Positions 993 through 64,000 of a stretch of DNA of 64,000 bases are shown here, piece after piece (the first letter of the stretch is position 1; the number at the start of each line of letters is the position of its first letter). Location of the stretch: contig JAYSUD010000005.1 of NCBI GenBank assembly GCA_043719295.1, positions 98,077-162,076 of the forward strand. Reading direction: 5' to 3'. The notes below the pieces were generated by a model. It did not search any database, had not been told where the DNA came from, and was given only the letters and a program-made list of their open reading frames with translations. The stretch comes from a bacterium. GTDB taxonomy: Bacteria; Patescibacteriota; Minisyncoccia; Phycocordibacterales; UBA918. Both the position numbers and the translations under genes were made by a program.

Positions 993-1332
993 ACATAATT
1001 ATATTAGCACGGGTTCTAAGACGGGAATCTCTTTCCCTACGGGAATGGTATGCCTTTTGGATGGATTGGTACGCTTCGCTTCCAATCCATCACAAAAGCC
1101 TTTCGAGTCCCTTTTTGGATGTGTCCGACACATCCAAAACTCTCGCTCGTAACATAAAATGGCCGTTGCTGTGGCAACGACCATTTTATTAACTGGTCAC
1201 GAGTTACTAACTATAATTGTTCGCTTCGCTCCAATTCAAGTAAGTACTCTCGACCCCGCCTCGACTGTCGCAAGCGACATGTCTATGGCTCGCAGTTAGG
1301 CACGGAAGCAAAGCAGTTTGCTTCCTAAAAAG

Positions 1333-1366: not shown

Positions 1367-1375
1367 ACCTAACTG

Positions 1376-1688
1376 CGCGAGAGACGGGACTCGAACCCGC
1401 AACCTCTGCCGTGCACTGAATTCATTATTTTCATAATGGCGTGGACTATATCTTTACCATGAGTCTTTCGACTGTTAGGTACCCCGGTATCTAGTCTCTA
1501 CGGCGCCCCCATACTATGTGTTTTTGTATATGGGGTTCCCTCGGTATTCGCATATCTAGTAGTGCTTATTGGGCACTATTTCAAACGACTTAGCCTTCAC
1601 CGATATCCCGGAGAGTTTCAATCCTAACTTTCGAAAGGAAAGCTGCACGTCTACAGGGCAGCGCTCTAACCAATTGAGCTACTCCCGC
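1376..1688 (-). tRNA. tRNA-Asp(GUC) interrupted by a ~239-nt group I-like intron in the anticodon loop
   Basis: 5' half (1653-1688; acceptor GCGGGAG, D-arm GCTC-AATTGGTTA-GAGC, anticodon stem CTGCC) and 3' half (1376-1413; GGCAG, variable AGGTT, T-arm GCGGG-TTCGAGT-CCCGT, acceptor CTCTCGC, discriminator G) are both canonical; splicing at 35/36 gives loop CTGTCAC and a T-arm identical to bacterial tRNA-Asp; 5' exon ends in U and intron ends in G; alternative junction 33/34 would give UGC. Confidence 0.6.
1414..1652 (-). other. putative group I intron (no internal ORF) inside tRNA-Asp
   Basis: 239-nt intervening sequence between canonical tRNA halves; boundaries U|...G| fit group I rules; size matches known tRNA group I introns. 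Confidence 0.45.
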
Positions 1689-3409: not shown

Positions 3410-3498
3410 AGCCGGATTACTGTAGCATTATTATTAGAATTTAAAAAAGTCTTCAATCCTTGACGTACTCTTCCCCGGAGAGCACTTCATCGACAGAC

Positions 3499-3525: not shown

Positions 3526-3526
3526 G

Positions 3527-3599
3527 TGTCGACGACAAGAATTGAACTTGTGACCTTTTCTTTATGAGTGAAATGCTCTACCAACTGAGCTACGCCGAC
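3527..3599 (-). tRNA. tRNA-Met(CAU), elongator-type (could alternatively be a lysidine tRNA-Ile2)
   Basis: hand-folded cloverleaf: acceptor GTCGGCG/CGTCGAC, D-arm GCTC-AGTTGGTA-GAGC, anticodon loop CTCATAA, T-arm ACAAG-TTCAATT-CTTGT, discriminator A. Confidence 0.75.
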
Positions 3600-10617: not shown

Positions 10618-10883
10618 AAAATTTGTTCGTCACTGTATTAAACAACTTCCTACGAAGCTGTCTACTCAATGGACTATTCTTCACTTCGATACGAATAGTC
10701 TCATTGAGTCTTGCGAAGTGATACAAATCACTTCTCACACCTCCTCACAAATTTTTGCTCTTTCAACTGAAACTGTATAGGTTGTATGATATTTAAAAAA
10801 TATCGACAACCTTTTACATAATAACATTAAGTTATTATGTAACCTCAAATCTCATCAGAATTTAAAGCTTTGTATGTGAGGTG

Positions 10884-19171: not shown

Positions 19172-19233
19172 CATAGATAAAGTATACCTCTGTGTCACCT
19201 ATCGATTTATACACTTTGGGGAAAACTGTGCTA

Positions 19234-19267: not shown

Positions 19268-19281
19268 TAGTACAATCTTGG

Positions 19282-19915: not shown

Positions 19916-20245
19916 TTATAATAATCCTAATTGAGTACGCAACGCTTGTTCAATTCCGAGCATATCAAGTGAATGCACCTCTGTGTACTTTTTAATAAGT
20001 TTTTCTTTACTCACCGTTGTTAATTGATTAGTCATCGCTTTACCTTTTTTATCTAACACGTTAATTAGTGCTTCCCCAGGAAAAATTCGATCAGTATTGG
20101 ATGTTAGTGGCACAACTTGAAATCGATCAATGTGGGCATTTGAAATATTATTACTCATAATAACTGCAGGTCGTGTTTTTTGAATTTCAGAGCCAATACT
20201 TTGCTCGAAGTTTACCCACCAGACTTCACCACGCATAGGTGTCAT
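19916..20245 (-). CDS. MazF/PemK-family type II toxin endoribonuclease
   Basis: GEVWWVNF...RPAVIMSNN MazF/PemK signature. Confidence 0.75.
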   Translation of the reverse strand: MTPMRGEVWWVNFEQSIGSEIQKTRPAVIMSNNISNAHIDRFQVVPLTSNTDRIFPGEALINVLDKKGKAMTNQLTTVSKEKLIKKYTEVHSLDMLGIEQALRTQLGLL

Positions 20246-20259
20246 ATAATTTATTTAGG

Positions 20260-20514
20260 TTAAGAAGCCCAATTATTTTCATCAACAATGGGTTCTTGTG
20301 TGCCTTCAATCCACTCTTTTGCATCGCGGTTGTAGGCAATATCAGCAGCCATAGCTTTATAACCAGCTTCTAGGTCACTTAGAACTACATGTGGACGTGC
20401 TAGAGAACTAAGGTATGTTCCCATCCCCCGTGCACCAAATTTAGCCAACAGACCTAAATAGACTTGTCGATCAAGCATCAAGGTGACTTTCTGCTTTGCA
20501 ATTTTAGTATTCAT
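20260..20514 (-). CDS. putative antitoxin cognate to MazF-like toxin
   Basis: 84-aa ORF immediately upstream in the same operon; RHH-like N-terminus. Confidence 0.4.
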   Translation of the reverse strand: MNTKIAKQKVTLMLDRQVYLGLLAKFGARGMGTYLSSLARPHVVLSDLEAGYKAMAADIAYNRDAKEWIEGTQEPIVDENNWAS

Positions 20515-20580
20515 AATACGTAATAGTATACGTATTAATAATTACTGTCAATATAATGTCCCCACCTTGCACATCTAGTA

Positions 20581-20844
20581 TTAAAGCTTTACATGCTTAT
20601 GGAGAATTGAAGAAATGAGTGTTTGATAGGGAATACCTTCACGAGCTGCTGAAGCTTTGATCTTATTATAACTTTTCTCTGTTAACCGAATACTGATTGT
20701 TCTTGTTTTCTCGAGGGTATAGCGTGCAGCGGCAGCGTACTTAATTTTTTCAGCCTCAAGATCAGCCACAGGTGTATACTCACCCCGCTCGAAAGCGTCT
20801 TCAATTTCTTGTTCTTCAGGAGTTAATGCGAATTTATCTTTCAT
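20581..20844 (-). CDS. BrnA-family antitoxin
   Basis: C-terminal GIPYQTLISSILHKHV matches the BrnA (COG3514) signature. Confidence 0.6.
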   Translation of the reverse strand: MKDKFALTPEEQEIEDAFERGEYTPVADLEAEKIKYAAAARYTLEKTRTISIRLTEKSYNKIKASAAREGIPYQTLISSILHKHVKL

Positions 20845-20857
20845 ATATAAATGTTAA

Positions 20858-21121
20858 TTACTTTAAATACTTCTTTGTTGCGACTCTACTTGGATATACT
20901 GTCTTCAAGAAAAATTTTTCATCATCTTCCACAAACGGAACCTCGTATATATACCCATCAATATTTATAATAAATATCTTTTGATGCTCATATGGTGGAT
21001 GATTATCTACAATATCTAAATAATCACCCTGTTCAATATATGTCACACACAAATTGAACGAGATATCTCTATTCTCAATGAGCCACTGATTTTTTTCTTC
21101 ATTCCAATCAAAGTACTTCAC
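20858..21121 (-). CDS. BrnT-family toxin (DUF497/COG2929 ribonuclease)
   Basis: FDWNEEKNQWLIENRDISF BrnT-like N-terminus, upstream of brnA. Confidence 0.65.
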   Translation of the reverse strand: MKYFDWNEEKNQWLIENRDISFNLCVTYIEQGDYLDIVDNHPPYEHQKIFIINIDGYIYEVPFVEDDEKFFLKTVYPSRVATKKYLK

Positions 21122-21204
21122 ATTAATATTCTATACAATGTATATCAAATGTCAACATGATCTCATGAAAAGAGCTGAAAACCATACAAATGAGCTACAC
21201 CCTG

Positions 21205-22413
21205 TTAGATAGTATTAGTAAGGTTGTAAATTGGCATCAGAACTGATGCGAGCAAGATTCCAACTCCGAGTCCAAGCATTACAATCATCACTGGTTCAAT
21301 AAGGCCAATAAGCGTGTCTACTGCGTTATCAACTTCACGTCGATAGAACTTAGCTAGGGTATTTAAAATCTCAGGTAAGTTTCCTGTCTCCTCCCCTACT
21401 TTTGCCATTTGGGCTAGAACTCCAGGTATCTCAGGATACTCACCGATAGTATCAGCAAACGAACGGCCCCCTTTTACTTCTAAGAGTGTGAACATGAAAA
21501 TCTCTTTGTATACTTCGTTATCAACGACGTCTGCAGTTACTTCAATTGCTTGCACCATTGAGATTCCACTTGCAAGCATTGTTGCTAAGTTGTCACAAAT
21601 ACGGGTGAGGTAGAGTTTACGATTTAAGTCACCAATATACGGAATAGAAATCTTAAACTCATCGTACGCTCGTCGCCCGACGTCTGTTTTAAGAAACCTG
21701 AAGAGAAAGAACCCACCAATTGCCATCACCACAAGAATCACACCAATGTAGTTAGCGAAGAAATTTGATATTGCAAGCACAATCCGTGTGTAGATAGGAA
21801 GCTCTTGCCCAGAGTCTATCAGAATCTGACTAATACGAGGGATCACCATTGTGAACATGAGCCCCATTACCGCGACAAACGTACCAACAACAAACGCTGG
21901 ATACACCATCGCATTTTTGGCCTTTGTCACTACTTGATAGGTACGATCAAGGTAGTCTGCAAGATAGTTAAATGATTTTTCAAGTGATCCTGTTTCCTCT
22001 CCTGAACGAACCATGCTTACGTAGAACGTCGAGAAAATCTCTGGGTGTGCAGATAGTGCACGCGAAATAGAACTTCCCGCCTGCAGTTCGTCCCCAATAG
22101 TAGTTAAGACCGACTGGAGTTGTTTATTTTCTGACTCAGTTGCAAGGAGGCGGAAGATACGCAACGCTGAAACTTGTGCTTCAAAGAGTGTCGCCATCTG
22201 TCGAGACAAAATCACCACATCTTTATTCGATACACTATTAAACCAGTCAAATTGAATGTTAAGAATCGAATTTTTTTCTTCAACCGGATCAATAGCAACA
22301 ACTGTATATCCACGTTTTTGAACCGTGACAATGGCAGCATCAATGTTACTTGCTTCTACCGTTCCTTCTCGCGAAGCGTTATGTTGATCAATTGCTTTGT
22401 AGTTAAAGAGCAT
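21205..22413 (-). CDS. pilC: type IV pilus assembly platform protein PilC (GspF family)
   Basis: 402 aa; duplicated T2SS-F domains with 3 TM segments. Confidence 0.85.
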   Translation of the reverse strand: MLFNYKAIDQHNASREGTVEASNIDAAIVTVQKRGYTVVAIDPVEEKNSILNIQFDWFNSVSNKDVVILSRQMATLFEAQVSALRIFRLLATESENKQLQSVLTTIGDELQAGSSISRALSAHPEIFSTFYVSMVRSGEETGSLEKSFNYLADYLDRTYQVVTKAKNAMVYPAFVVGTFVAVMGLMFTMVIPRISQILIDSGQELPIYTRIVLAISNFFANYIGVILVVMAIGGFFLFRFLKTDVGRRAYDEFKISIPYIGDLNRKLYLTRICDNLATMLASGISMVQAIEVTADVVDNEVYKEIFMFTLLEVKGGRSFADTIGEYPEIPGVLAQMAKVGEETGNLPEILNTLAKFYRREVDNAVDTLIGLIEPVMIVMLGLGVGILLASVLMPIYNLTNTI

Positions 22414-22694
22414 GTTAGATTTTATTATGAGCGAAGCGAATTATAAACATCTTACACCCTGCCCCATTTTTTGACGAGTCTTTATTGCAACAGTTTTCTA
22501 TTCGAGTATTCATATTTGAAACATTCATTGGTGTAAAAAGAGAAAATGGGGCGGGTAAATTCGAGCATCTGCATTTTCTTTCGTTTTACTCATAAAATAA
22601 TAGAGCCTATTTACTACCAAGTGAGCGAGCAAAGTAGAAAACATTCTTGTTTTCTTCTTTTAAGCGATCGCAGGTAGAAAGATTGTTCATACTC

Positions 22695-23765
22695 TTACAT
22701 CAGTCGTTCAAGTCCTTTTGGATTAACCGAGTATGCAAATGCATTCTCAACGGTGATTACACCCTTTTGTACCATCTGTACCAGTGATCTATTCATGTCA
22801 ATCATACCATGCTCAAGACCTGTCTCAATAATAGTCTGCACTTCATGGGTTCTGTTTTCACGAATCAAGTTTGCAACCGCACTATTGTTGATAAGGAGTT
22901 CGTATGCAGGAACGAGTCCACCAGAAATAGACGGAATCAGACGCTGTGAAAAGATTCCCGTAAGTGATCCTGCAAGCTGTGCCCGAATCTGTCCTTGTTG
23001 GGCTGCTGGAAATGAGTCAATGATACGATCAATTGTTTGTGCAGCGTTGTTAGTATGAAGTGTTGAAAGTACCAAGTGCCCCGTTTCTGCTGCGGTAACT
23101 GCAGTTGCAATAGTTTCTGCATTACGCATTTCTCCAACTAAGATAACATCAACGTCCTGTCGGAAGACAGCAGTAAGCGCGGTTTGAAAACTGTCGGTAT
23201 CAACTCCTACTTCTCGTTGCACAATAAGCGATTTCTTTGGTTCGTAAATATATTCAATTGGATCTTCGATAGTCACAATGTGCTGCGCGAAATTTTGATT
23301 AATGAGCTCAACCATTGAAGCAAGGGTGGTTGACTTCCCTTGCCCTACCGGGCCCACACAAAGGAAAAACCCCTGTGGTCGCTGTGTGAATGTCTCTAAG
23401 ATGCTCGGAAGCCCTAGCTCCTCAAGTGTTCGGATACTGTCAGGGATAAGTCGAAGTGCAATTGCTTTTGTACCATTTTGAAAAAAACCGTTACCACGAA
23501 ATCGAACTCCATCTTGGTGCGCATATGAAAAGTCCACTTCAAATGTTTCAAGGTAACTCTTGTACTTTTGTTCACTCATCAAGGTCCGAGCAAATCCATC
23601 AACGTCTTCATTGGTCAAAATTGGTTTTTTAATGAGTGGAATGAGTGAGCCTGTGATACGTACAATAGGATGTGAGCCTGTACTCAAGTGCAAGTCAGAG
23701 CCTTTTTCCGCATGAAGTATCTCAATAAGTTCTTTTAGTTCTCGTTTGTAATCAACTGATGCCAT
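22695..23765 (-). CDS. pilT: type IV pilus retraction ATPase PilT
   Basis: Walker A GPVGQGKST; Asp box, His box; ~355 aa, PilT-size. Confidence 0.85.
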   Translation of the reverse strand: MASVDYKRELKELIEILHAEKGSDLHLSTGSHPIVRITGSLIPLIKKPILTNEDVDGFARTLMSEQKYKSYLETFEVDFSYAHQDGVRFRGNGFFQNGTKAIALRLIPDSIRTLEELGLPSILETFTQRPQGFFLCVGPVGQGKSTTLASMVELINQNFAQHIVTIEDPIEYIYEPKKSLIVQREVGVDTDSFQTALTAVFRQDVDVILVGEMRNAETIATAVTAAETGHLVLSTLHTNNAAQTIDRIIDSFPAAQQGQIRAQLAGSLTGIFSQRLIPSISGGLVPAYELLINNSAVANLIRENRTHEVQTIIETGLEHGMIDMNRSLVQMVQKGVITVENAFAYSVNPKGLERLM

Positions 23766-23775
23766 ATAAATAAAA

Positions 23776-24138
23776 TTATGAAACAATGGTGTGCACTTTT
23801 GCTACTACTTCACTTGGAATTAAATCTGCTTTAATAATATACCCTACTGCGCCTTGTGCATATGCGGCGGTAATATCACTTTCTTCACCTTGGTTTGAAA
23901 GTACAATACATTTTGCACTTGGTGCAATATTTTTATCTTTTATCTCTTTTAAAAGCTCTACACCACTCATCCCTGGCATCACCATATCCATAATGATGAC
24001 ATCAAAGGCTTCAGAACCAAGTTGTAACAGCGCATGTTTGCCGTCTTCTGCACTCTTAACTTCATCTCCATATTCTGAAAATTTTGTTGCGTACATATCA
24101 CGCAAAAAGATGTCATCATCAACAAGTAAAATCTTCAT
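23776..24138 (-). CDS. single-domain response regulator (CheY/PilH-like receiver)
   Basis: MKILLVDDD...D54...K receiver-domain pattern; 120 aa. Confidence 0.75.
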   Translation of the reverse strand: MKILLVDDDIFLRDMYATKFSEYGDEVKSAEDGKHALLQLGSEAFDVIIMDMVMPGMSGVELLKEIKDKNIAPSAKCIVLSNQGEESDITAAYAQGAVGYIIKADLIPSEVVAKVHTIVS

Positions 24139-24147
24139 TACTGTGTA

Positions 24148-25971
24148 TTATACTTGAGTTAGATCTTCAATTGGTGAGTTATTGACAGGCACGACTTCTT
24201 CAAGCTCTTGATCCATCGCGTTTTCAAGTCCAATCTTTGTACCAAAGTTGTTAATTTCTTCGTACGGGATGACGTGATCAAGCGCCTTGATGATGGCATC
24301 TTCTTTCATGCTCATAAAACCATTTTTCCGAGCAATTGCGAGGATGTCTTCTTCAGATCCATTCTTGAGAATCTGTTCTTGGATTTCACTTGAGATTTCA
24401 AGTACCTCCATAACTGCAGAGCGGCCTTTTGTTCCTGAAGCACATCCTGACGTTGCTTCAGGATGCATGACTGACTTCCCTGTCGGAACTAAGTGTCGAT
24501 ATTTTTCTGGAAGTGTTTTGAACTCCTCATCAATCATCATTTGAAGTGACGTATCAACAGGAACTTCCTTACCTGTGTTAGGACATAAACGTCGTGCGAG
24601 TCGTTGCGCAATAGCAAGCTTCAACGTAGGTGCAATCAAATACGGATCAACACCCATATCAATCAAACGTGGCACAACTCCAATTGAGTTGTTGGTGTGA
24701 ATTGTTGAAAGTACCAAGTGCCCTGTAAGCGCAGCTTGTACCGCAAGTTGTGCTGTTTCTTTATCACGAATCTCTCCTACCATAATAACGTCGGGGTCTT
24801 GACGTAACGCACTTCGAAGTCCATTGGCGAATGTGTACCCAATCTCAGGACGGACTTGTGACTGACTTACTCCTTTGATGTTGTACTCAATAGGGTCTTC
24901 AAGCGAAAGTACGTTTTTTGAAACACAGTCAACTTCAGACAACATCGCATAGAGCGTTGTTGATTTACCACTTCCTGTTGGTCCCGAGATAAGGATTATC
25001 CCATACGGTTCTTTAAGCATTCTCCTAATAGTTTGAAGATTATGGGGTGAGATTCCTGTGTCTTCAAGCGTACTTACCCCTTTGATGTTATCAAGAATAC
25101 GCATTACCACTTTTTCACCATAGTTTGTTGGCAGAATTGATACACGAAAGTCAATCTTGCGACCATCAAACGTTGAGGAGAAACGCCCGTCTTGTGGCTT
25201 ACGCTTTTCATCAAGACGCATGGACGATAAAATCTTCACACGTGCAACAACAGCTGCTTGCACATTTTTTGGCAACTCAAGACTTTTCGCAAGAATACCG
25301 TCAACTCGAAATCGCACAACCACATTTGCATCAGTTGGTTCAATGTGAATGTCAGACGCTGCTCCATCAATCGCGTAACGCAAAATGGTTGCAACAATTT
25401 TTGTAACAGGAGCATCCTCTTTGATATGTTGCAGGTTTTCTTCTGCCTTAGCATCAATATCCTCGCCAGTTAATGCAGCGAGATCTTTATCACTCTTAGT
25501 TGTATCAAGTGATCCTAATGCCTCACCTATCTCTCCGCTTAGAGACTCATACGACTCTAGTACTTTTTCAATATCAGATTCCAATACAAATACCAGCTTA
25601 GAAGGTAGATCATACTGCAGACTAATAAAGTTTAAGACCTCACGGACTTTTAAGTTATCCGGGTTGTTTGCCCCAATGATAAGTACACTATCTTCGATTT
25701 TAAGGGGTACAATCTGATAATGTCGAGCAGACTCTTCAGGTAAGTATTGCAATATCTCATGGGGAACCGACTCATCTTTTCCAATTAAGTATCCAGGTAC
25801 ACCAAACTCTTCGGCAAATGCATTGAGTACAACTTCTTTTGGCACCTCTTTCTGCAAAAGAGCTCTCTCAAGAGAAAAACCTAAATCGTTACTTTTAGCA
25901 CCAATCTCCAAAGAATCTTCTTCTGTTATTGCGCCCGATTGTAAGAGACGTTCGAGTACATCCATACACAA
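24148..25971 (-). CDS. pilB: type IV pilus assembly ATPase PilB (GspE family)
   Basis: Walker A GPTGSGKST; tetracysteine motif; N-terminal GSPII domain. Confidence 0.85.
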   Translation of the reverse strand: MCMDVLERLLQSGAITEEDSLEIGAKSNDLGFSLERALLQKEVPKEVVLNAFAEEFGVPGYLIGKDESVPHEILQYLPEESARHYQIVPLKIEDSVLIIGANNPDNLKVREVLNFISLQYDLPSKLVFVLESDIEKVLESYESLSGEIGEALGSLDTTKSDKDLAALTGEDIDAKAEENLQHIKEDAPVTKIVATILRYAIDGAASDIHIEPTDANVVVRFRVDGILAKSLELPKNVQAAVVARVKILSSMRLDEKRKPQDGRFSSTFDGRKIDFRVSILPTNYGEKVVMRILDNIKGVSTLEDTGISPHNLQTIRRMLKEPYGIILISGPTGSGKSTTLYAMLSEVDCVSKNVLSLEDPIEYNIKGVSQSQVRPEIGYTFANGLRSALRQDPDVIMVGEIRDKETAQLAVQAALTGHLVLSTIHTNNSIGVVPRLIDMGVDPYLIAPTLKLAIAQRLARRLCPNTGKEVPVDTSLQMMIDEEFKTLPEKYRHLVPTGKSVMHPEATSGCASGTKGRSAVMEVLEISSEIQEQILKNGSEEDILAIARKNGFMSMKEDAIIKALDHVIPYEEINNFGTKIGLENAMDQELEEVVPVNNSPIEDLTQV

Positions 25972-26259
25972 TTAATTTACTTCAAATGGGTTTTGACTTC
26001 CAACTGGTTCAGCGCTTACGTTAGGTGTAACATTCTTTAGCGAAGCAAAACGGGGATCATAAAATATTTCGCCATTGAGCTCAACTGCCGATAATTCATT
26101 AAGACGACTCAAGATTTGGGCACTTTCAATTTCAAGATTATCTGCAAGAGGACTAGTAGTAAGTGTTGCCAGAGAATTTTGCTTGTAGAGGTAATAGCCA
26201 AGTGCAACAGTCCCCACAAGGCCTAAGAGTATAAATAAGTTTTTAAGTAATGAAGTCAT
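25972..26259 (-). CDS. hypothetical small membrane protein in the PilP position of the pilMNOP operon
   Basis: single TM; location only. Confidence 0.3.
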   Translation of the reverse strand: MTSLLKNLFILLGLVGTVALGYYLYKQNSLATLTTSPLADNLEIESAQILSRLNELSAVELNGEIFYDPRFASLKNVTPNVSAEPVGSQNPFEVN

Positions 26260-26263
26260 ATGA

Positions 26264-26914
26264 TTATGATGAGGGAGTAAGACCAAATGCGCGAAGTGTT
26301 AATTCAAAGTTATACTCACCATTTTTTCTACTTTGTGTCTCTGTGTTTGCGCCAGTTTGGCCACCTCCCGTTGCGGGCTTGAGAGTGAATTCAACAACTT
26401 CGAGCAATGCAGGATTAGCTTCAATTTGCGCGAGTGCATTTTTCATGTCTTCATAAGAACTTGAAAACATCACTTTGATGTCGCGTGAATAGATGCCTGA
26501 TGTAATAGTTGGCTTCACTGTCTCCATAACAGTACCATCAGCATTGTATACAATCTCTTCTTCTACTGATGCTTCAGAGAAGGGTGCAATTTCTTCAGCA
26601 ACAGTCATCGACGTAGGAAGTATGTTTGTTCCAAGAAGGATACTTTCAAGGTCGTGCATAATCGCAATCTCATCAATAGAGAGTGGAATAAATTTCTCAA
26701 GTGATACTAATCCTTCTTGTGGAAATGACTCTTTGGTTGCAAGGAGCTCCTGAAGCCGTTCGTTATATTGTGAAGCTTTATCTACCGCATCGCTATATTT
26801 AAAGATATCGTCTTGAATTGCTTTAGTATCTTCAAACTTTGGCATGACATAGGTAAATATGATGACACATGCTGCGCCAATGAGTACCACCTGCATGAGT
26901 AATGAGTATTTCAT
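26264..26914 (-). CDS. PilO-like pilus assembly protein
   Basis: N-terminal TM plus coiled-coil, operon position after PilN-like. Confidence 0.5.
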   Translation of the reverse strand: MKYSLLMQVVLIGAACVIIFTYVMPKFEDTKAIQDDIFKYSDAVDKASQYNERLQELLATKESFPQEGLVSLEKFIPLSIDEIAIMHDLESILLGTNILPTSMTVAEEIAPFSEASVEEEIVYNADGTVMETVKPTITSGIYSRDIKVMFSSSYEDMKNALAQIEANPALLEVVEFTLKPATGGGQTGANTETQSRKNGEYNFELTLRAFGLTPSS

Positions 26915-26918
26915 ATAG

Positions 26919-27674
26919 TTATTGTATGCTTGTGTCTACCTCTGAGGTTGTGTCAGTTGACACATTGTCAGTAGAATCAGTACTATTTTGTTCTGCAGAA
27001 TCAGAAGTAGTGTCTTGATTTTGTTCTACTGTTACATCGCTATTTTCTACTACTTGTGGAGCATAGTTCACTAATGTAGGGTCAATGTCAGAAGAAATTT
27101 CAAATGCAATTACAGGATCATCTTGCGTTTCTCTTTGACCGTCTTTCTCAACATCGTCTGATACTTCACCAGCTATTTCTACCTTAGTGAAGGTGGCTTG
27201 AGCCAAGACAGGGTTTAAATCAAGTACTTCCCGTTGGAAGAGTACGCTATTGAAACTTCTTGCTTCACCTTTAAGTGTGATTAGAGGCGCAGCGTCGCTC
27301 ACTCGTTTGTAATCAAAAGAAGTTAGGGTTAAAGATTCAAGTGCACTATTTTCAATGGCACCAAAAATACGCGGAAGTGAGATATGCGCATCCATCTTTG
27401 CTTCTGCAGTATTAATAAGTTGCTCAAGTCGTAGAACACTTTCAATTTCACCTTGTCCAAACTTACTCTGTTCCTGGGTAAGTTTCGTCTTTTCTACATT
27501 TACTTTTGCCTCAAGCGTGTAGGTGTATAAGAAGACTGCTGCTGCAGATACGATTGCCCCAAAGAATAAAACATACGCAACGTACGAGAGTATATATATT
27601 TTACGTACACCTCGATTTTGTACGTTACCTTGCGTTGGACGCTTGGGTATAAAAGAAGTATTTTGAGGGTTCAT
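26919..27674 (-). CDS. PilN-like pilus assembly protein
   Basis: N-terminal TM plus coiled-coil downstream of pilM; acidic S/T-rich tail. Confidence 0.5.
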   Translation of the reverse strand: MNPQNTSFIPKRPTQGNVQNRGVRKIYILSYVAYVLFFGAIVSAAAVFLYTYTLEAKVNVEKTKLTQEQSKFGQGEIESVLRLEQLINTAEAKMDAHISLPRIFGAIENSALESLTLTSFDYKRVSDAAPLITLKGEARSFNSVLFQREVLDLNPVLAQATFTKVEIAGEVSDDVEKDGQRETQDDPVIAFEISSDIDPTLVNYAPQVVENSDVTVEQNQDTTSDSAEQNSTDSTDNVSTDTTSEVDTSIQ

Positions 27675-27735
27675 ATTCTCTCTTAGTATACGTGAGCATA
27701 CTTACATCATAGTTTCATCTGTGTGGATAAGAGCG

Positions 27736-28824
27736 CTACTGTTCAAATGATTGAAGTGCTGCTCCAAGTGCAACTGTAAACACAGGGGCAATGGAAGTGA
27801 GTGTATCTTCCATAAATGCCGGATATGCAATTTTATTAAACGGATTAGTGATTTCTACTTGTGCATCAAGTGCATACGAAAGTAAGGGGACAAAATCAGT
27901 GTGTAGTGATGCTCCGCCAGTTGCAACAACACGACTCACCTTCTTTCCTGTTCGTGTTTGATACTGATCAAGTACACGTTTGAACTCTTGGAACGTACGG
28001 TCAAAAGCGGTACTCATAATTTTTTTAATCAATTGGCCGTCTTCACTTTGCCCATCTGCGCTCCGTTTAATATTTTCAGCATCTTCAAATGAAATATTTT
28101 TCTGTTTGGCAAGTGAGGAAGTTACGTACGACCCTCCAGTTTGGACCCTATGGATTCTGCATAAAAAACCACCCTCAGCGATGTATAGCTTGCTTGTTTT
28201 AGCTCCAATATCAATAACAGCAATGGAACTATCAGAGTCTTTTGTTACTGCCCGCAATGTACTGAAAATCTCAAGCTCAGAACGTCGTGAAGCCATGGAA
28301 ACGGATTCTCCGAGCGCATTCATTTCCCGAAGTGCTTCGTTTAAGATTGCGACAAGAAGTACCTCGCGGGTTAAATTATCTTTTTTTCCTTCTTGAGCCA
28401 ATTCTGACCACTCAAGCGCGACATCAGTAAGTGGCACGGGGATGTATTTCCGTGCTTCAACATGAACACGAGGAGTAATATCTTCCCCCGCTTTTGCTTG
28501 GAGTGGAATAATCGTGACAAAACTATCAGATAGTGGTAACGCAAGTGCGCCTGTTTTTGCAGTAACTCCTGACTCACGAAGCACGTCAACAAGCGCTTCG
28601 ATGCGCTTTTGAAGTGGCAACTTCACTGCATTTCCTAATCCCGATTCACCATACGGACCAAGTTGTAATTCACCATAGGTTGATAATGAAAGCACACCCT
28701 CACTCTTTTCTACTTCAACAACTTTAATTGAAGATGAACCAAAATCAATCCCAACCACCTTAGAAGCAAGTGGTGGAGTCACTTTAGAAACAGATGAAAA
28801 AACTTTTTTGAAATCAAACGCCAT
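27736..28824 (-). CDS. pilM: type IV pilus assembly protein PilM (actin-like ATPase)
   Basis: VVGIDFGSSSIKVV actin-fold phosphate-1 motif. Confidence 0.8.
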   Translation of the reverse strand: MAFDFKKVFSSVSKVTPPLASKVVGIDFGSSSIKVVEVEKSEGVLSLSTYGELQLGPYGESGLGNAVKLPLQKRIEALVDVLRESGVTAKTGALALPLSDSFVTIIPLQAKAGEDITPRVHVEARKYIPVPLTDVALEWSELAQEGKKDNLTREVLLVAILNEALREMNALGESVSMASRRSELEIFSTLRAVTKDSDSSIAVIDIGAKTSKLYIAEGGFLCRIHRVQTGGSYVTSSLAKQKNISFEDAENIKRSADGQSEDGQLIKKIMSTAFDRTFQEFKRVLDQYQTRTGKKVSRVVATGGASLHTDFVPLLSYALDAQVEITNPFNKIAYPAFMEDTLTSIAPVFTVALGAALQSFEQ

Positions 28825-30650: not shown

Positions 30651-30762
30651 GTACGAATTAGTGTAGCAAAATTCTGGAAGATGAGGGAATTTCTACCCTT
30701 ACAGGGTCAGTACCCCGATTGGATATTTTAGTTCGCTTCGCTCCTAAACTATCTCAATCTGG

Positions 30763-30875
30763 CTTCGAATCCCTCCGCACGTGACATTTAGTCACGTGCT
30801 CATCTTCCGCGAACAAAATATGCGCCCTTGTGGGGCGCTATTTTGAATCGCGGAAGATGAGGGATTCGAACCCTC
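30763..30875. repeat. extended inverted repeat: inverted copy of the 3'-terminal ~25 nt of tRNA-Ser(ACU) (30763-30775 + 30799-30811) facing the tRNA 3' end (30849-30875), with two nested hairpins
   Basis: reverse-complement comparison of the flanks. Confidence 0.7.
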
Positions 30876-30937
30876 GAAGGATTTAACTCCTTGGCAGTTT
30901 AGTAAACTGCTGCTTTCAGCCACTCAGCCAATCTTCC
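30851..30937 (-). tRNA. type II (Ser-like) tRNA with anticodon ACU (loop TTACTAA)
   Basis: 87 nt; acceptor GGAAGAT/ATCTTCC, 3-bp D-stem GCT/AGC, long variable arm (AAGGA-GTTAAA-TCCTT), T-arm GAGGG-TTCGAAT-CCCTC, discriminator G; anticodon stem GCAGT/ACTGC. Confidence 0.65.
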
Positions 30938-31151
30938 AATATATTCGCTTCGCTCAAATTGTAACCCTACGGGAGGATTAACTTCGTGTCTGCCACGCAG
31001 ATGAATCTGCGGTAAAATATGAAGAAGTTCATATTGAACCCACGGAGCCAATCTTCCACAGGCGGGGGTATTATAGACTGAAATTGGTTTGTTTCAAAAT
31101 ACATAGTTCGGTGCGATAATGGTGTCCTGAATTCCTTATCTCTACTTATAT

Positions 31152-34909: not shown

Positions 34910-35046
34910 GTTACATGTCGAAGCTGGATACTATGAAAATGCATCAAACCCAAGGCATTGCCTTGGGTTTGATGGTTGCGGAGGGAATTTCGGTCATTAC
35001 ATGACCAGTATCTGTTGTCGCTCTTTTTCCAAAAGAGCTGGCAACA

Positions 35047-35142
35047 GCTTCGAATCCCTCCTTTTCTCGCAAATGCAACAAAACCCAAACAAAGCTTTGG
35101 CTTTGTTTGGGTTTTGGCATTTGCGGAAAAGGAGGGATTCGA
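35047..35142. repeat. ~45-bp near-perfect hairpin whose outer arms are the tRNA-Ser(GCU) 3' end (35125-35142) and its inverted copy (35047-35064)
   Basis: reverse-complement comparison; inner arms cgcaaatgcaacaaaacccaaacaaagc / gctttgtttgggttttggcatttgcg. Confidence 0.7.
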
Positions 35143-35209
35143 ACCCTCGAGGGTTATTCACCCTACTTTCTTAGCAAGAAAGCACAATCGGCCTCTCTGA
35201 CACTTTTCC
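35124..35209 (-). tRNA. tRNA-Ser(GCU), type II
   Basis: 86 nt; acceptor GGAAAAG/CTTTTCC, anticodon stem CTTTC/GAAAG loop TTGCTAA, variable arm AGGGT-GAATA-ACCCT, T-arm GAGGG-TTCGAAT-CCCTC; D-arm irregular in hand fold. Confidence 0.6.
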
Positions 35210-35226: not shown

Positions 35227-36216
35227 TTATTTCAAGTACCTTTTCAAATGCTTTGGATTATGAGTTCCAATTTCTTTCATGTACCGAGCAACATCGTGGA
35301 TTGCATCAATACGAACATTGGTTCCACTACATGTGGCAGTACTCCCGAATCGATGCAGAATAAATAACACCTCGTTTCGAAGCGGTTTTGAAGCGGAAGA
35401 AAAACATAATTTCTTATATTGATACTCCTTACCTCCTACTTTATATTTATGGAGATACACTGAACCATCTGTATCCATTAATCCTCGTAGACATGCCGAG
35501 GAATATTCTTCATTTTCTAAAATCCATGCAGGGATATGTACCTGCTGTTTCACTTTGTTACCTATAACGAGTCCTAGGGATACAAGAAAGATGACTGCCT
35601 TTTTCCGTGCCAAAACAATACTATGTGCATGTGCATCTTTACGAACATACACACTTGGCATCACCCCAAATAATTTTTGCATCAATGATTTAACAAACAA
35701 CCCATATTCAAAATCATCAACAGAATGTAAAGTGACCGACACCTGATACTGTGTCAGTCCTCCATCGCCAAGCATGATGCCTATAAATTCAGCAAGTTTA
35801 TTATTTCTCACTGGTATACAAATATTTTTTGTAAAAAAATCTGCTATTTCAGTTTTTCCGCCATTATCAAACCATCTACGCCAACTCTCTTTGCGCACTG
35901 TTTCATTCACAGGAACTCTGCCATACTTTTTCATTACTGCGGAAGAACCTGCTAAACCAGCCCGACTAGTATGCTCATAGCGATTAATTTGACAGACTCT
36001 TGGGACAAGCATATTGGCTTCTTTTGCGAGCAAAACTAGACTCTCATATGGCATCATAGTTTTACCTAACTTCCATCCACGAATTGTACGGTCCGAACAA
36101 TTGCAAATTTTTGCCATACGACCTACTGATACTTTATCGCATGCTTTTGACATCCACAGGGCTTGTTTTTCTATCGAAGCAAACTTTGCTTTTTTATCTA
36201 CTAAAGAATCTATCAT
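35227..36216 (-). CDS. LAGLIDADG homing endonuclease (two-motif) with N-terminal HTH
   Basis: motifs EFIGIMLGDGGL and LRGLMDTDGSV; HTH near the N-terminus; directly upstream of tRNA-Ser(GCU). Confidence 0.8.
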   Translation of the reverse strand: MIDSLVDKKAKFASIEKQALWMSKACDKVSVGRMAKICNCSDRTIRGWKLGKTMMPYESLVLLAKEANMLVPRVCQINRYEHTSRAGLAGSSAVMKKYGRVPVNETVRKESWRRWFDNGGKTEIADFFTKNICIPVRNNKLAEFIGIMLGDGGLTQYQVSVTLHSVDDFEYGLFVKSLMQKLFGVMPSVYVRKDAHAHSIVLARKKAVIFLVSLGLVIGNKVKQQVHIPAWILENEEYSSACLRGLMDTDGSVYLHKYKVGGKEYQYKKLCFSSASKPLRNEVLFILHRFGSTATCSGTNVRIDAIHDVARYMKEIGTHNPKHLKRYLK

Positions 36217-53712: not shown

Positions 53713-54159
53713 ATGAGCGCATACATTAGTAATAAAAAGGCATCGTTTAACTTTGAACTCCTTGAAACCTTTGAGGCAGGAGCGGTGCTTTTTGGGTATG
53801 AGGTAAAGTCCATTCGCGCAGGTAAAGGAAAGCTTGAAGGAGCTCACGTGGTTATCCGAGGTGGTGAGGCATTTTTGGTAGGTGCTTCAATCACCGCTTT
53901 TCAGCCTGTAAATACTCCAAAAAGTTATGATCAAGAACGTGCACGAAAACTTCTTTTGTCTAAAAAAGAACTCCAGGTTCTTGAACGTCAAAGTGAGAAT
54001 GCTGGCTTGACAATAGTGCCATTAAAGTGGTATAATAGTGGACGCAATGTAAAGCTTGCAATTGCTATCGGCCGTGGTAAAAAGAAGGTCGATAAACGTG
54101 AAGCGCTCAAGGAGCGTGACACAAAAAGAGAAATCAATCGTACCTTGAAAGAACAATAG
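53713..54159 (+). CDS. smpB: SsrA-binding protein SmpB
   Basis: SmpB pattern (NKKASFNFELLE...GxEVKS); tmRNA follows. Confidence 0.85.
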   Translation: MSAYISNKKASFNFELLETFEAGAVLFGYEVKSIRAGKGKLEGAHVVIRGGEAFLVGASITAFQPVNTPKSYDQERARKLLLSKKELQVLERQSENAGLTIVPLKWYNSGRNVKLAIAIGRGKKKVDKREALKERDTKREINRTLKEQ

Positions 54160-54758: not shown

Positions 54759-54887
54759 ACAATATACGCACACTATCCCCTGAAAATTTTTAAATTCAAT
54801 TTGAAAATTGTAAGAGACTTACAACTTGTACGTCATGATGTATGTACAACCTTCCCATTGAGTATTTAAGCTATTTGAATTTTCAAT

Positions 54888-55280
54888 GGGGATGCTAGGC
54901 ATCGACGGTTAGTCCCTGCTGTTGTGTGCAGTGTCAAAAGAGCATGTGGATTTGTAAAAATACATGCAACACTTACGTGCTAAGAATAACGTAGTAAGTC
55001 CATACTTCTCGAAGTTGGATCTCGTACCCGCTCTCGCGTAACCCGCGACGGCCGGTCGACATTGTTTCTCTTGAGGTTTCATAGAGAGAATTGCAGTGTA
55101 ATAAAAATGAAACTTGAAAGTAGTACCCCTTCCTAGTACTACTTAGACCTTCTTAGGAATCGAGAGTGTACGATTTTGTTTATCTTATACGTCCACCCTT
55201 TAAATCAAAAGAAATACTACACACTGTAGACGCGCGATAGCAACCTAATTCGGACGTGGATTCAATTTCCACCATCTCCA
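54888..55280 (+). ncRNA. ssrA: tmRNA (ssrA), one-piece
   Basis: 5' GGGGATGCTAGGCATCGACGG (conserved TCGACGG); 3' tRNA-like end GTGGA-TTCAATT-TCCAC + CATCTCC + A; G3:U70 alanine determinant; candidate tag ORF (A)KNNVVSPYFSKLDLVPALA* at 54979-55041. Confidence 0.8.
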
Positions 55281-55574
55281 CAATTTAAAAATCTGCACAC
55301 ATTTTTCGTGGGCGATTTTTATTTGTGGAGATGGTGAACAGGCAAACTGCTTTGCCTGTGTGAAATTGAATCAAGCGGAAGCATGTTGCCTTGCAACAGC
55401 TGAGCTCGGGGAGGAAGTTCTTAGTAATTTAGGAACGAAGTGAACTTAAGTACTTAGAAACTTGACCCTTCAATTTCCACTATCTCCACCGACACATAAA
55501 ATCACTCAGATCCATGAGTGGTTTTATGTTTTATTTGGCACGGTGACCCACGGAAGTATGTCATACTTATATAT

Positions 55575-58739: not shown

Positions 58740-59144
58740 CTACTTATAACAAGCGATAAGTGACGCACCTTCTAGTACCGATGGTGTTGCACCTGCCATA
58801 ATTTCTGCTACACGGGCTTTCCCTACTTTTGCTTCTGCACAGGCAATCATCGCTGGAGTTAATGTAGCTTCATCAGGGTTAAGGCCGAACGATTCAAGCA
58901 TTTTTTTCTGACCTGATGACAGGCCACTTTGTGAACTTGAATCTCCTTGTGCAGGTACATCACTTTGCCCAACATTATTTACACCACTTTGTTGAGTATT
59001 TTCTGAGCTATTTTGTTTTAGCATATCCGAGGTATCGTCTGCAATTGAATTGAGCCTGGTTTCTATCCCTGACCTTCCAAGAACAAACCCTATAGCTAAA
59101 GCTAAGAGAACCACACATACCCATCCAACAATTTTTATATTCAT
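58740..59144 (-). CDS. hypothetical membrane-anchored protein
   Basis: N-terminal TM then Ser/Gln-rich linker and a small C-terminal domain. Confidence 0.3.
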   Translation of the reverse strand: MNIKIVGWVCVVLLALAIGFVLGRSGIETRLNSIADDTSDMLKQNSSENTQQSGVNNVGQSDVPAQGDSSSQSGLSSGQKKMLESFGLNPDEATLTPAMIACAEAKVGKARVAEIMAGATPSVLEGASLIACYK

Positions 59145-59253
59145 CACTACAGTATACTCCTCTTTTAATCTCATTTTCTGGATAGGTATTACCCCCTCTT
59201 TCCCACAAAATCATAACGTTGATTTGGGTACTCTTTGCTATACTGTTCCAACT

Positions 59254-59670
59254 ATGCTTGATGATTCATACAGACCAGAGGTAAAAGTAAAGAAAAGTTC
59301 TGCTGGACTTGGCCTTTTTGCAAATGAAGATATTAAAAAAGACCAACTTGTTATTGAGTACACTGGTGAACGCATTACTGAAGCTGTCGCAAATAAACGA
59401 GGTGGTCGCTATCTCTTTGAAGTTACCGATGACTTAGTTATTGATGGTAAGGGGCGAGAAAACAAAGCTCGCTACATTAACCATGCCTGCAAACCTAATT
59501 GTGAAGCAGAGCATGATGAAGATGAACATCGAATCTACATCCGTGCATGCAAAAATATTAAGAAAGGTGACGAACTTTCATACAATTACGGAAAGGTGTA
59601 CATGAAAGAAATCATTGGACCTGAGGGTTGCTTGTGTACCACCTGTACTGCAAAGAGTTTGAAAAAATAA
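59254..59670 (+). CDS. SET-domain protein (putative lysine methyltransferase)
   Basis: INHACKPNC (NHSCxPN) and ELSYNYG (ELxxDY) SET signatures plus post-SET Cys cluster CLCTTC; start at MLDDSYRPE. Confidence 0.7.
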   Translation: MLDDSYRPEVKVKKSSAGLGLFANEDIKKDQLVIEYTGERITEAVANKRGGRYLFEVTDDLVIDGKGRENKARYINHACKPNCEAEHDEDEHRIYIRACKNIKKGDELSYNYGKVYMKEIIGPEGCLCTTCTAKSLKK

Positions 59671-62170: not shown

Positions 62171-63532
62171 TCAGAACTCAATCTCCACTTCTTGATTGAG
62201 ACTTGGCGCAACTGCGTTAAGTCCTAGGTAATCTCGCAAACGTTGGACTAAAAACAATGACGATTTCTCTTCACCCATAGTGACGAAGATTTGTTTTGCT
62301 TTATCTTTACCCCCTGCCACAGTTTCAAGTAATTGGTCACGGTCGGCGTGGCCTGAAAATCCACGTATCATAGCAATCTCAGCTTTTACTTTTACAAACT
62401 CCCCATCAATATTTACCTTCTTCGCACCGTCACTTAAAATGCGCCCAAGACTTCCAAGTGCCTGATATCCCACAAGTAACACTGTGGTGTTTTTGTCATC
62501 GAGGTAGTTCTTCTCGTGCATACGAATTCGCCCTCCGTGACTCATGCCACTTCCTGCGATAATTATCTTTGCTCCTTTGTGGTTTTTTATTTCTTGTGAA
62601 TCTTTAACTCCTTTAGTGAACGATAGTCCCTCAAAATCGAAAATATCATCACCTGCTTTAATCTGTTCTTGTACTTCAGTCTTTAAGTACTCAGTATATT
62701 TTCGATAGACATCGGTGACCGTAATGGCTAAGGGCGAATCTAAGAAAACCGGCAGGGGTTCAATGAGTCCTTGCTCTACCATGTTGTTTATTTCAAGGAG
62801 CATCCCTTGAGTACGCTCAAGTGAAAAAGCTGGAATAATGAGTGTTCCCCCTCTTTTCTGTGTGGCGACAATATACTGCTGTAAAAGTGAAGAGCGTTCT
62901 TTTACTTCTTCGTGCACACGGTCACCATAGACACTTTCCATGACCATGTACTCATACTCACTTGGGATAACGGGTGCGTTTAGAAGTGGTTGCGGGATAT
63001 TTCCTATGTCTCCAGTAAATACAATCTTCTTTCCTTCCTTTTGTAGATGTACCATCCCTGAACCAAGAATGTGTCCTGCATCGGTGTAGTGCATAGTAAC
63101 ACCATCTTTGAGGGTAACTTCTTCATTATATGAGACACGTCGCCAAAGCGTTACTGCCATATCAATATCTTCAGTGCCATAAATCACTTTACTTCCATAT
63201 TTTTCTTTTTCATATTCCATTACCTTGAGTGCGTCGCGGAGCATAATGTGTGCCAAGTCAAAGGTTGGAAACGTGGAATAAATAGTTCCTCTAAAGCCAT
63301 CTTTTACCAGTTTCGGGATACGACCAATGTGGTCAGCGTGTGCGTGAGTAACCAATAAGAAATCAATGTCAGCTGGATTATAGACAAATGGAAGCGCGTT
63401 ACTTTCTTGTACAAACCGATCTCCTTGCACCAGTCCACAATCAACTAAAATTGCAACGTTCCCTGTATCAAGTAAAAAGTTAGCCCCTGTTACACTCCCT
63501 ACTCCTCCATAAAAACCCAATGTTGATGACAT
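62171..63532 (-). CDS. beta-CASP metallo-beta-lactamase-fold ribonuclease (RNase J-like)
   Basis: HAHADH MBL motif plus beta-CASP region; 453 aa. Confidence 0.7.
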   Translation of the reverse strand: MSSTLGFYGGVGSVTGANFLLDTGNVAILVDCGLVQGDRFVQESNALPFVYNPADIDFLLVTHAHADHIGRIPKLVKDGFRGTIYSTFPTFDLAHIMLRDALKVMEYEKEKYGSKVIYGTEDIDMAVTLWRRVSYNEEVTLKDGVTMHYTDAGHILGSGMVHLQKEGKKIVFTGDIGNIPQPLLNAPVIPSEYEYMVMESVYGDRVHEEVKERSSLLQQYIVATQKRGGTLIIPAFSLERTQGMLLEINNMVEQGLIEPLPVFLDSPLAITVTDVYRKYTEYLKTEVQEQIKAGDDIFDFEGLSFTKGVKDSQEIKNHKGAKIIIAGSGMSHGGRIRMHEKNYLDDKNTTVLLVGYQALGSLGRILSDGAKKVNIDGEFVKVKAEIAMIRGFSGHADRDQLLETVAGGKDKAKQIFVTMGEEKSSLFLVQRLRDYLGLNAVAPSLNQEVEIEF

Positions 63533-63916: not shown

Positions 63917-64000
63917 GTTCTCATTCTACCATACGAAAAAATGTGTAAAATAAGGAGCGTAGCGAATATATTTTTCATACGTATAATTTTTTATTTCTAA

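Follow-up and report, generated by a model that had tools for sequence, protein, structure and literature searches.

The genomes of Patescibacteria are tiny and contain little spare DNA. One signature used in calling genomic islands is the presence of a directly repeated 3' end of a tRNA gene or of the gene for transfer-messenger RNA (tmRNA), and the T-loop, as reportedly set out by Williams in 2002, is a classical integrase sublocation. In this study, the region behind the tmRNA gene (ssrA) was analyzed in a 64-kb stretch of patescibacterial DNA (contig JAYSUD010000005.1, positions 98,077 to 162,076; the whole stretch of 64,000 nucleotides is called the window hereafter), where an initial annotation had noted a repeat of this kind and had suggested the residue of an excised or decayed island, or a miniature element. 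The unit behind ssrA, designated E, is very probably a structured element maintained by selection and not island debris. It can be assigned with high confidence to an old family in a clade of Paceibacteria, whose members lie behind tmRNA genes and stand-alone tRNA genes and have arms matched to their own upstream gene. No description of E was found in the literature searched. Variant tmRNA genes that have been described include a form with a group I intron in the T-psi-C loop and a circularly permuted two-piece form (PMC11915505). Both were considered for this locus and rejected: the group I intron model RF00028 had no match at E (E-value ≤ 1), its only match being the intron of the tRNA-Asp gene at 1422-1669, and the tmRNA is uninterrupted; furthermore, the gene is contiguous and standard (model positions 1-374), and the antisense arm of E carries A3 and not G3.

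The ssrA gene is a standard one-piece tmRNA gene at 54888-55281/55283 on the forward strand (ARAGORN; Rfam RF00023, 107 bits, full-length model), with smpB (53713-54159) upstream of it and ftsH preceding smpB. The repeat search identified a 21-nt direct repeat (55261-55281 and 55469-55489; 20 of 21 positions identical), with a start-to-start distance of 208 nt and 187 nt enclosed. It spans exactly the first T-loop base to C74, starting in the T-loop like the classical attachment-site duplications of tRNA and tmRNA genes. The repeat is real, as none of 20,000 mononucleotide shuffles of the downstream 500 nt reached the observed match (best shuffle, 17/21). The same search identified an inverted repeat (55270-55290 and 55316-55336; 21 nt, 90% complementary) and a second inverted block (55259-55269 and 55362-55372; 11/11), which was absent from the initial annotation. 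The inverted copy that had been annotated, ATTTGTGGAGATGGTG, is present at 55321-55336, about 3 nt away from the position given for it before (55318-55333); for an inverted 14-mer within 100 nt, the observed match was 13/14, whereas the best of 20,000 mononucleotide shuffles reached 12/14. The reverse-complement copy of the tmRNA 3' end is split in two (55325-55336 and 55360-55372). As previously stated, the enclosed segment holds no cargo, since no open reading frame (ORF) was found in the 187-nt interior between the direct copies. On the other side of the gene, just 5' of the tmRNA, a 16-nt inverted repeat (54854-54890, + strand) takes in the first three G of the gene (CCCATTGA...TCAATGGG) and could be a leader hairpin relevant to 5' processing.

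For the description of the element, the proximal copy was named A, the antisense arm A' and the distal copy A2, with E denoting the folded unit (55325-55490, about 166 nt); the coordinates of its parts and of the related copies in the window are listed in Table 1. The segment 55322-55493 was predicted to fold at -65.1 kcal/mol (z = -6.4), and the fold of the orthologue in the closest relative, locus L001 (SmpB 78% identical), had the same architecture and a z-score of -6.6. Both halves of the antisense arm pair with A2 in this fold, so that the 21-nt 3' strand is double-stranded throughout and P2 branches off. Through this pairing, the helix that closes E has the inverted copy as one strand and the direct repeat as the other. 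A' carries A where the 5' strand of the tmRNA carries G3, and U70 is thus Watson-Crick paired; owing to this replacement, A' is an exact complement of the 3' strand and not a copy of the tmRNA 5' end. The trailer hairpin t1 was not called by a simple terminator scan, the t1 hairpins of orthologues are cleaner, and t1 looks like a weak intrinsic terminator, judging from its sequence. The hairpin t2 has the GC-rich stem and T-run of an intrinsic terminator.

Table 1. Positions of the tmRNA gene, of the parts of element E behind it, and of related copies elsewhere in the window
Feature	Position	Strand	Description	Evidence
tmRNA gene (ssrA)	54888..55283	+	tag peptide AKNNVVSPYFSKLDLVPALA	ARAGORN and Rfam RF00023
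A, proximal copy	55261..55281	+	tmRNA T-loop, T-stem 3' strand, acceptor 3' strand, discriminator and C74 (TTCAATTTCCACCATCTCCAC)	sequence, repeat search
t1	55282..55324	+	trailer: A-run, imperfect GC hairpin, T-run; apex of the A/A' palindrome	sequence
A'a, 5' arm, first half	55325..55336	+	GTGGAGATGGTG; exact complement of acceptor 3' strand, discriminator and C74	9/9 complementarity
P2	55338..55359	+	9-bp hairpin with CTGC tetraloop, interrupting the antisense arm	fold, covariation
A'b (T'), 5' arm, second half	55360..55372	+	GTGAAATTGAATC; complement of T-loop and T-stem 3' strand	repeat 11/11; 9/10 against own tmRNA
P4	55374..55406	+	hairpin with purine-rich internal loop, 5'-GGAA/UGAG-3' here, GNAG/YGAG in relatives	fold, covariation
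P5	55408..55468	+	long hairpin with TGACC at its end; apical loop GGAACGAAGTGAA (55432-55445), of loop motif GAGCNNNGCGAA	fold, covariation
A2, 3' arm	55469..55490	+	distal sense copy TTCAATTTCCACTATCTCCACC; closes E by pairing with A'a and A'b (P1, P3)	repeat search, fold
t2	55494..55529	+	strong intrinsic-terminator-like hairpin, 15 pairs, then T-run	terminator scan
E2	30673..30810	-	behind tRNA-Ser(ACT) (30937..30850), full layout; arms are the complement and a copy of that tRNA's 3' end	R2 65.8 bits, E-value 1.7e-18; fold z = -6.5
E3	34962..35088	-	divergent copy behind tRNA-Ser(GCT) (35209..35123)	mainly layout; R2 13.2 bits, E-value 0.08
E4'	1183..1330	-	directly behind intron-split tRNA-Asp (1688..1375)	R1 95.5 bits; R2 113 bits
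E4	1038..1146	-	second member, in tandem behind E4'; 5' arm complementary to tRNA-Asp acceptor and T-arm	R2 26.8 bits, E-value 3.9e-6
Truncated member	3449..3495	-	behind tRNA-Met (3599..3526): antisense arm, P2-like hairpin, T-loop complement, then T-run	read from sequence
E-like element	10651..10746	-	P2-like and P5-like hairpins, GTATCGAAGTGAA loop; behind gatA terminators	R2 21.1 bits, E-value 2.4e-4

Relatives were collected by an SmpB scan of representative genomes, which yielded 80 loci (8 kb around smpB), nearly all of them from Patescibacteria and of the Paceibacteria/Parcubacteria type. A covariance model (R1) was built from four copies and searched in the window and in the 80 smpB loci, and a second model was designated R2. 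In the model-guided alignment, which was fitted to R1 and leans towards the structure, 94.7% of cells pair, compared with 38-47% in controls slid by 1-3 columns, and 47 of 51 pairs have double changes. P2 and the base of P4, with numerous compensatory changes, had already emerged from an independent MAFFT/RNAalifold run. In P2, eight of nine pairs have double compensatory changes and 100% of cells pair; in helix 6, which belongs to P5 (helices 5-7 of the alignment, helices 3-4 being P4), all 17 pairs have double changes. G-U and U-G combinations together (29) exceed A-C and C-A combinations (4), and as RNA the + strand folds better than the - strand by 6.6 kcal/mol. This G-U excess, this better fold and the constant orientation of the copies point to a structure that is read on the tmRNA strand. 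Two other candidates were rejected: a small peptide, as the short ORFs that cross E in the window are not conserved in L001, and the cores of box C/D RNAs, K-turns and hammerheads, for which the alignment showed no consistent boxes.

Comparison of the window with L001 showed 79.7% identity for E, which is above the smpB DNA (73.8%), the tmRNA (73.2%) and t1 (70%), while the smpB-ssrA spacer (54.1%) and the 60 nt after E (50.7%) were near the shuffled E control (about 50%). Since the SmpB proteins of the genomes with E are only 48-78% identical to that of the window, neither the conservation nor the covariation comes from near-identical genomes. E1, the copy behind ssrA in the window, resembles the L001 copy far more than it resembles E2, E3, E4 or E4' of its own genome (R2 scores of 134, 113, 66, 27 and 13 bits). 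This greater likeness between orthologues than between paralogues is what old, vertically inherited paralogues kept by selection would show, as opposed to an active repeat family or debris.

These results bear directly on the proposal that the two direct copies are the left and right attachment sites of a deleted or decayed genomic island with a functionless residue between them, which must now be considered very improbable. A direct repeat of the tmRNA 3' end that starts in the T-loop is the classical signature of such an event, and the genes downstream of A2 differ among relatives as they would at an integration hotspot (a cohesin-like gene in the window, a toxin-antitoxin pair in L001 and L007), synteny downstream of ssrA not being kept. 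However, the 187 nt form a strongly folded and covarying structure that occupies the same place in at least 12 genomes, has homologous cores at other tRNA genes and is about 80% identical to L001, whereas the flanks are at the level of random alignment (about 50%). The inverted arm and P2 are left unexplained by an island, and yet the inverted copy is the most constant feature of the family, being present even in copies that have no direct repeat. A search of 58 ORFs of the window against Pfam detected no integrase, transposase or reverse transcriptase. "Miniature element" remains a fair description of E.

R1 identified 18 credible copies, all of them directly behind an upstream tmRNA or tRNA gene and on its strand, to which R2 added copies in loci L033 and L049 and the weaker window copies E4, E3 and 10651-10746. 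E is located behind the tmRNA gene in at least 12 other Paceibacteria genomes. Among tmRNA loci with enough downstream sequence, 12 of 53 carry it, and three further matches lie where ARAGORN missed the tmRNA. Across the family, the size of E ranges from 110 to 190 nt. Outside the family, Rfam 15 contained no matching family for 55284-55530, either at the gathering score or at E-value ≤ 1, and BLAST of the same segment against phage and plasmid collections found no match. A pattern derived from E (GTGGAGATG...GAATYGAA) matched at least 120 stretches in IMG/VR; the 80 loci fetched (712 kb of viral contigs) contained no E by the covariance model R1 at E-value ≤ 0.1, and the pattern matches look like chance. 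The assemblies themselves show irregularities at this locus: in L032 (about 4911-5400), a run of N lies between two copies of a segment of about 100 nt comprising the tmRNA 3' end and downstream sequence, and Logan contig L082, whose SmpB is identical to that of the window, stops at the tmRNA start. Repeats at the ssrA locus probably break or collapse assemblies.

The arms of E follow the preceding gene. In every one of the 14 tmRNA-linked copies, the complement of the T-loop and T-stem matches the tmRNA of the same locus at 9-10 of 10 positions, across seven versions of the T-arm, and the acceptor variants CATCTCC, CACTTCC and CAGTTCC are matched by GGAGATG, GGAAGTG and GGAACTG, respectively. 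A2 is good (≥ 17/21) in seven of these copies, partial in three and absent in four, and the matching of the antisense arm holds in the latter four as well. Where A and A2 differ, it is A that the antisense arm follows (the C/T site in the window; the T-loop in L001 and L016a), and the complementarity extends into the unconstrained trailer, whose pairs compensate as well (CAC-AA/TT-GTG in the window versus CAC-GA/TC-GTG in L001). The invariant relation is thus that of the antisense arm to the 3' end of the preceding gene, and the distal sense copy, frequent as it is, is dispensable.

Related copies were also found within the window itself, in agreement with the initial annotation, which had seen the same layout at tRNA-Ser and tRNA-Asp genes: it is present behind both tRNA-Ser genes and behind the intron-split tRNA-Asp gene and, in truncated form, behind a tRNA-Met gene (Table 1). 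In E3, the tRNA 3' end, the trailer and t1 make a near-perfect palindrome of about 45 bp with the 5' arm, and the distal copy GAAATTCCCTCC is followed by a second, t1-like terminator. The arms of E4' are displaced onto the end of tRNA-Asp and its trailer (CAGTTAGGTAAAA / CCTAACTG / CAGTTAATAAAA). No element was found behind the tRNA-Met gene at 5996 or the tRNA-Ile gene at 46689. The loop motif of P5, GGARCGAAGYGAAC, occurs eight times in the window with up to two mismatches, against about one occurrence expected, an enrichment of about 8-fold. Hairpins with an AT stem and a GAGCGAAGCGAA loop (core GCGAAGC) also stand alone in intergenic positions (22428-22441 and 63954-63967 on the + strand; 30943-30956 and 10651-10746 on the - strand), some of them antisense to neighboring genes; these hairpins could be bound by a protein, form mini-hairpins as DNA or act as a signal of the uptake type.

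The reading placed first, by a tentative preference that falls somewhat short of even confidence, is that E is a cis-encoded structured RNA module in the 3' trailer of stable-RNA transcripts, reached by read-through of t1, acting as a clamp and ending at t2. Its first place rests on its agreement with the orientation and strand bias, with purifying selection, with the greater likeness of orthologues than of paralogues and with the co-variation of the antisense arm. How such a module would act, from transcription, read-through and processing to the strand swap and its benefit, can be proposed with moderate to low confidence. Transcripts started at the strong promoter of the ssrA or tRNA gene would read through t1 and thereby produce E as RNA of the tmRNA strand, acting in cis. 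Transcripts ending at t1 would give an ordinary precursor. In read-through transcripts, A' would zip from the base of t1 across the trailer onto A, producing a hairpin of about 40 bp, after which A2, in which U70 is kept, would either complete the tRNA-like domain with the 5' strand of the tmRNA or close E by pairing with A', and the transcript would stop at t2. A heavily transcribed stable-RNA gene would in this way gain a 3' end that is defined and insulated, and a stable E RNA might also be released, with the purine-rich motifs of P4 and P5 serving as a contact surface for protein or RNA. In predicted minimum-energy folds of read-through transcripts from the tmRNA through t2, A' pairs with A in four of four genomes; the 5' acceptor strand of the tmRNA pairs with A2, including G3-U70, in four of six genomes, in three of which the 5' strand of the T-stem pairs with A2 as well. 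Thermodynamic prediction gave transcripts stopped at t1 a normal acceptor stem in three of six cases.

A number of observations weigh against the RNA module. The minimum-energy fold of the window's own sequence lacks the pairing between the tmRNA 5' strand and A2. The step in which a spare strand is used cannot be general, because the tmRNA-linked copies of L018, L022, L031 and L049 and the tRNA-Met copy, which also lacks the core, have no A2. The E-like element at 10651-10746 has no tRNA gene nearby. The logic of a clamp and a spare strand leaves the conserved P4 and P5 and their loop motifs unexplained, and, to our knowledge, most bacteria handle the 3' ends of tRNA and tmRNA without any such module. 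With DNA parameters the fold is equally strong (z = -7.3), which is compatible with a single-stranded DNA structure; because both parameter sets fold strongly, fold energy cannot distinguish RNA from single-stranded DNA, and what the analysis establishes is the strand. Other observations are of the kind that insertion or recombination would leave. The flanking direct repeat varies in length between loci, from about 13 to 52 nt. L016 and L019 have two elements in tandem, each after an A-type copy and a terminator hairpin, and a tandem is also found at tRNA-Asp. A 16-nt copy (14/16) of the 5' end of tRNA-Ser(ACT) is located 105 nt upstream of it (31042-31057, - strand). In L007, a toxin-antitoxin pair is flanked by a direct repeat of about 110 nt (CTCCACCA, t1, antisense arm, P2 and T-loop complement), an arrangement that suggests recombination at the element itself. 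The genes of that pair, encoding a HigB/Gp49-like toxin and an XRE antitoxin, are behind the tmRNA-linked element at 1860-2780 in L007, and genes of the same kind are found at 6267-6910 in L001.

Such features would be expected if E were an old miniature non-autonomous insertion or integrative element targeting the 3' end or the terminator of tRNA and tmRNA genes, the main alternative, which is possible and yet doubtful. A unit consisting of A, t1, A' and the core would have entered in or next to the T-loop, bringing a replacement 3' end and terminator and displacing A2 and t2; the hairpin of A' and A would imitate the target and serve as an attachment site in folded single-strand form, and the recombinase would be encoded elsewhere and act in trans. 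In favor of this, direct repeats of the local target flank every full copy (21 nt at ssrA, about 26 nt at tRNA-Ser, about 13 nt in the trailer of tRNA-Asp, and 40-52 nt including the terminator at E3 and in L021), the repeat begins at the integrase sublocation named above, each unit of the tandem arrays has one A-type copy, presence is patchy (12/53 tmRNA loci), and E4' of tRNA-Asp is closer to the core of the tmRNA-linked copy L016a than E1 is. The L007 repeats and the duplicated tRNA-Ser(ACT) 5' end would also fit, as would the order A ... A' - loop - A2, which is that of an integrated CTX-type element, and the strong DNA fold together with the sequence GCGAAGC held by many P5 loops. GCGAAGC forms a very stable DNA mini-hairpin. 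However, orthologous E is conserved above the tmRNA between randomized flanks, where a fixed passenger should have decayed. Divergence is far greater among the copies of a single genome than between orthologues from different genera, contrary to what an active repeat family would show. That the arms fit the resident gene in every case would require either long co-evolution or a target-copying chemistry for which we know of no precedent. The scanned window ORFs encode no recombinase despite six to seven copies per 64 kb, nothing similar was present in the phage, plasmid and viral collections searched, and there are neither terminal inverted repeats nor a target duplication of fixed length. The RNA module and the insertion element would be compatible with each other if E began long ago as an insertion element that became fixed and was co-opted.

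Alternatively, although this is considered improbable, E could be a trans-acting small RNA. It could be an auto-inhibited antisense regulator of its neighbor, with A' targeting the 3' end of tRNA or tmRNA and A2 locking the molecule internally, or it could imitate the acceptor/T minihelix without being chargeable and so titrate enzymes that bind tRNA. Such a role would agree with the perfect 21-nt antisense sequence that co-variation has kept in every copy, with the nuclease-resistant shape given by the closing helix and terminator, and with the conserved purine-rich loops, which could bind protein. In addition, A3-U70 replaces the alanine identity pair G3-U70 in all tmRNA-linked copies, so that the copied helix would not be alanylated. 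Against it, the discriminator and C74 are paired, leaving no free NCCA-type end, the T-loop copy is paired and not looped, invasion of a folded mature tRNA by 21 nt would be kinetically unfavorable, no promoter is visible between t1 and A', and the arms of E4' derive from the trailer and are not tRNA-like. A tRNA mimic as such was rejected for the paired discriminator and C74, the pairing of the T-loop copy in P3, the change from G3-U70 to A3-U70 and the absence of a match to a tRNA model. Transcription from a promoter of its own between t1 and A' was likewise rejected, none being seen, as was the idea of a primer-binding site, since A' matches the genomic trailer and not the mature CCA end.

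It is also conceivable, with considerable doubt, that E represents a new class of element in which the antisense arm and the 3' end of the preceding stable-RNA gene are functionally coupled. This could take the form of an RNA device giving tmRNA and tRNA genes two interchangeable 3' ends, with A' clamping the proximal copy in read-through transcripts and the distal copy completing the tRNA-like domain; stable-RNA 3' ends in Patescibacteria would then be formed or controlled in a way not known before. It could also take the form of an insertion element that has no protein gene and builds its arms from the target, its folded attachment site being a copy of the tRNA 3' end. Neither form has a described counterpart.

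The tRNA genes in front of the window copies have several features of their own. The tRNA-Ser gene at 30850-30937 (- strand) has the unusual anticodon ACT (A34), beside a normal tRNA-Ser(GCT) gene. Hairpins lie between it and the copy of its 5' end, one of them with a GAGCGAAGCGAA loop abutting the 5' end of the tRNA, and from its sequence this side, too, looks like the site of an insertion or duplication. The tRNA-Asp(GUC) gene (1375-1688, - strand), missed by ARAGORN, is split after anticodon position 35 by a group I intron of about 240 nt (RF00028, 1422-1669); the same 35/36 insertion site has recently been described for Patescibacteria (bioRxiv 10.1101/2025.07.03.662931). Two ORFs with a LAGLIDADG_3 domain (1666-2343 and 35227-36216, both on the - strand) end at or inside the 5' ends of tRNA-Asp and tRNA-Ser(GCT), respectively, and the ORF at 3601-4272 (- strand) before tRNA-Met contains the LAGLIDADG-like motif LGIGLYWGEG. 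Their products may be homing endonucleases of the free-standing type, or domesticated relatives of these, with a tie to tRNA genes. A link between the LAGLIDADG ORFs and E was rejected: the sole metagenome relative (L081, 198-1289, 45% protein identity) precedes a tRNA-Ser(GCT) gene that has no E, and because the adjacency is kept there, the linkage is to the tRNA and not to E. Other genes in the window encode a beta-CASP/RMMBL RNase of the RNase J or CPSF type (62171-63532, - strand), a bacterial SET-domain protein (59050-59670, + strand) and a type IV pilus or competence-like cluster with pilins, prepilin peptidase, PilC, PilT, PilB and PilM (16575-28824, - strand).

Despite its tiny genomes, this clade keeps a structured element of 110-190 nt behind the tmRNA gene and several tRNA genes, as tightly conserved as the tmRNA itself. 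If E is an RNA module, it would indicate that stable RNAs in a large uncultured branch of bacteria are matured, terminated or quality-controlled through an unrecognized step, and it would add an RNA class beyond those of Rfam 15. If it is a mobile element, it would be a minimal site-specific insertion system at tRNA genes with arms derived from the target. In practical terms, calling islands by direct repeats of tRNA or tmRNA 3' ends would give false calls in these genomes.

Compared with known systems, E is like the islands and prophages that tyrosine integrases insert at tRNA and tmRNA genes in its 3'-end repeat starting in the T-loop, in a proximal copy that completes the gene, in tandem arrays and in variable gene content beyond the distal copy. 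Unlike them, it has no integrase in the window and no cargo, its interior covaries under purifying selection, it contains an extra antisense copy split by a hairpin, and some of its copies have no distal repeat. With the attP(+) site of CTX phage, which is used by XerCD, and the attC sites of integrons, E shares the order of a target-like site, an inverted copy, a loop and a direct copy, as well as arms that imitate a double-stranded target, structure conserved above sequence, and a strand-specific signal. It differs from these in having no linked enzyme of the Xer or IntI type, in its target, which is the 3' end of tRNA or tmRNA genes and not dif or attI, and in its persistence at an orthologous position over deep divergence. 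The R-boxes of integron attC sites (GTTAGGT/GCCTAAC) were found only in E4', probably by chance.

E also resembles mosaics of repetitive extragenic palindromes (REP) and bacterial interspersed mosaic elements (BIME) and miniature inverted-repeat transposable elements (MITEs), in that it is multi-copy, intergenic and located after terminators, with the hairpin modules P2, P4 and P5 mixed and one copy apart from any tRNA gene. It has, however, no terminal inverted repeats, its target duplication is not fixed (13 to 52 nt), and its arms are matched to genes. A family of the MITE or REP type was rejected, as the six to seven copies in 64 kb are strongly diverged (R2 scores from 134 down to 13 bits) and not near-identical. 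Like the T-loop introns and permuted genes of tmRNA (PMC11915505), E is extra sequence joined at the T-loop, and A-t1-A', with its order of acceptor 3' strand, spacer and acceptor 5' strand, resembles the junction of a permuted gene. Like the large ornate RNAs ROOL and GOLLD, which are often found next to tRNA genes, E would be a structured non-coding RNA neighboring such genes, and its pairing with the end of a mature stable RNA that it flanks recalls the stems by which rRNA operons are processed; in contrast to ROOL and GOLLD, E is much smaller (110-190 nt), has no Rfam match to them and has arms copied from its neighbor. In conclusion, E was rated as related in kind to the insertion or repeat structures that are associated with tRNA genes.

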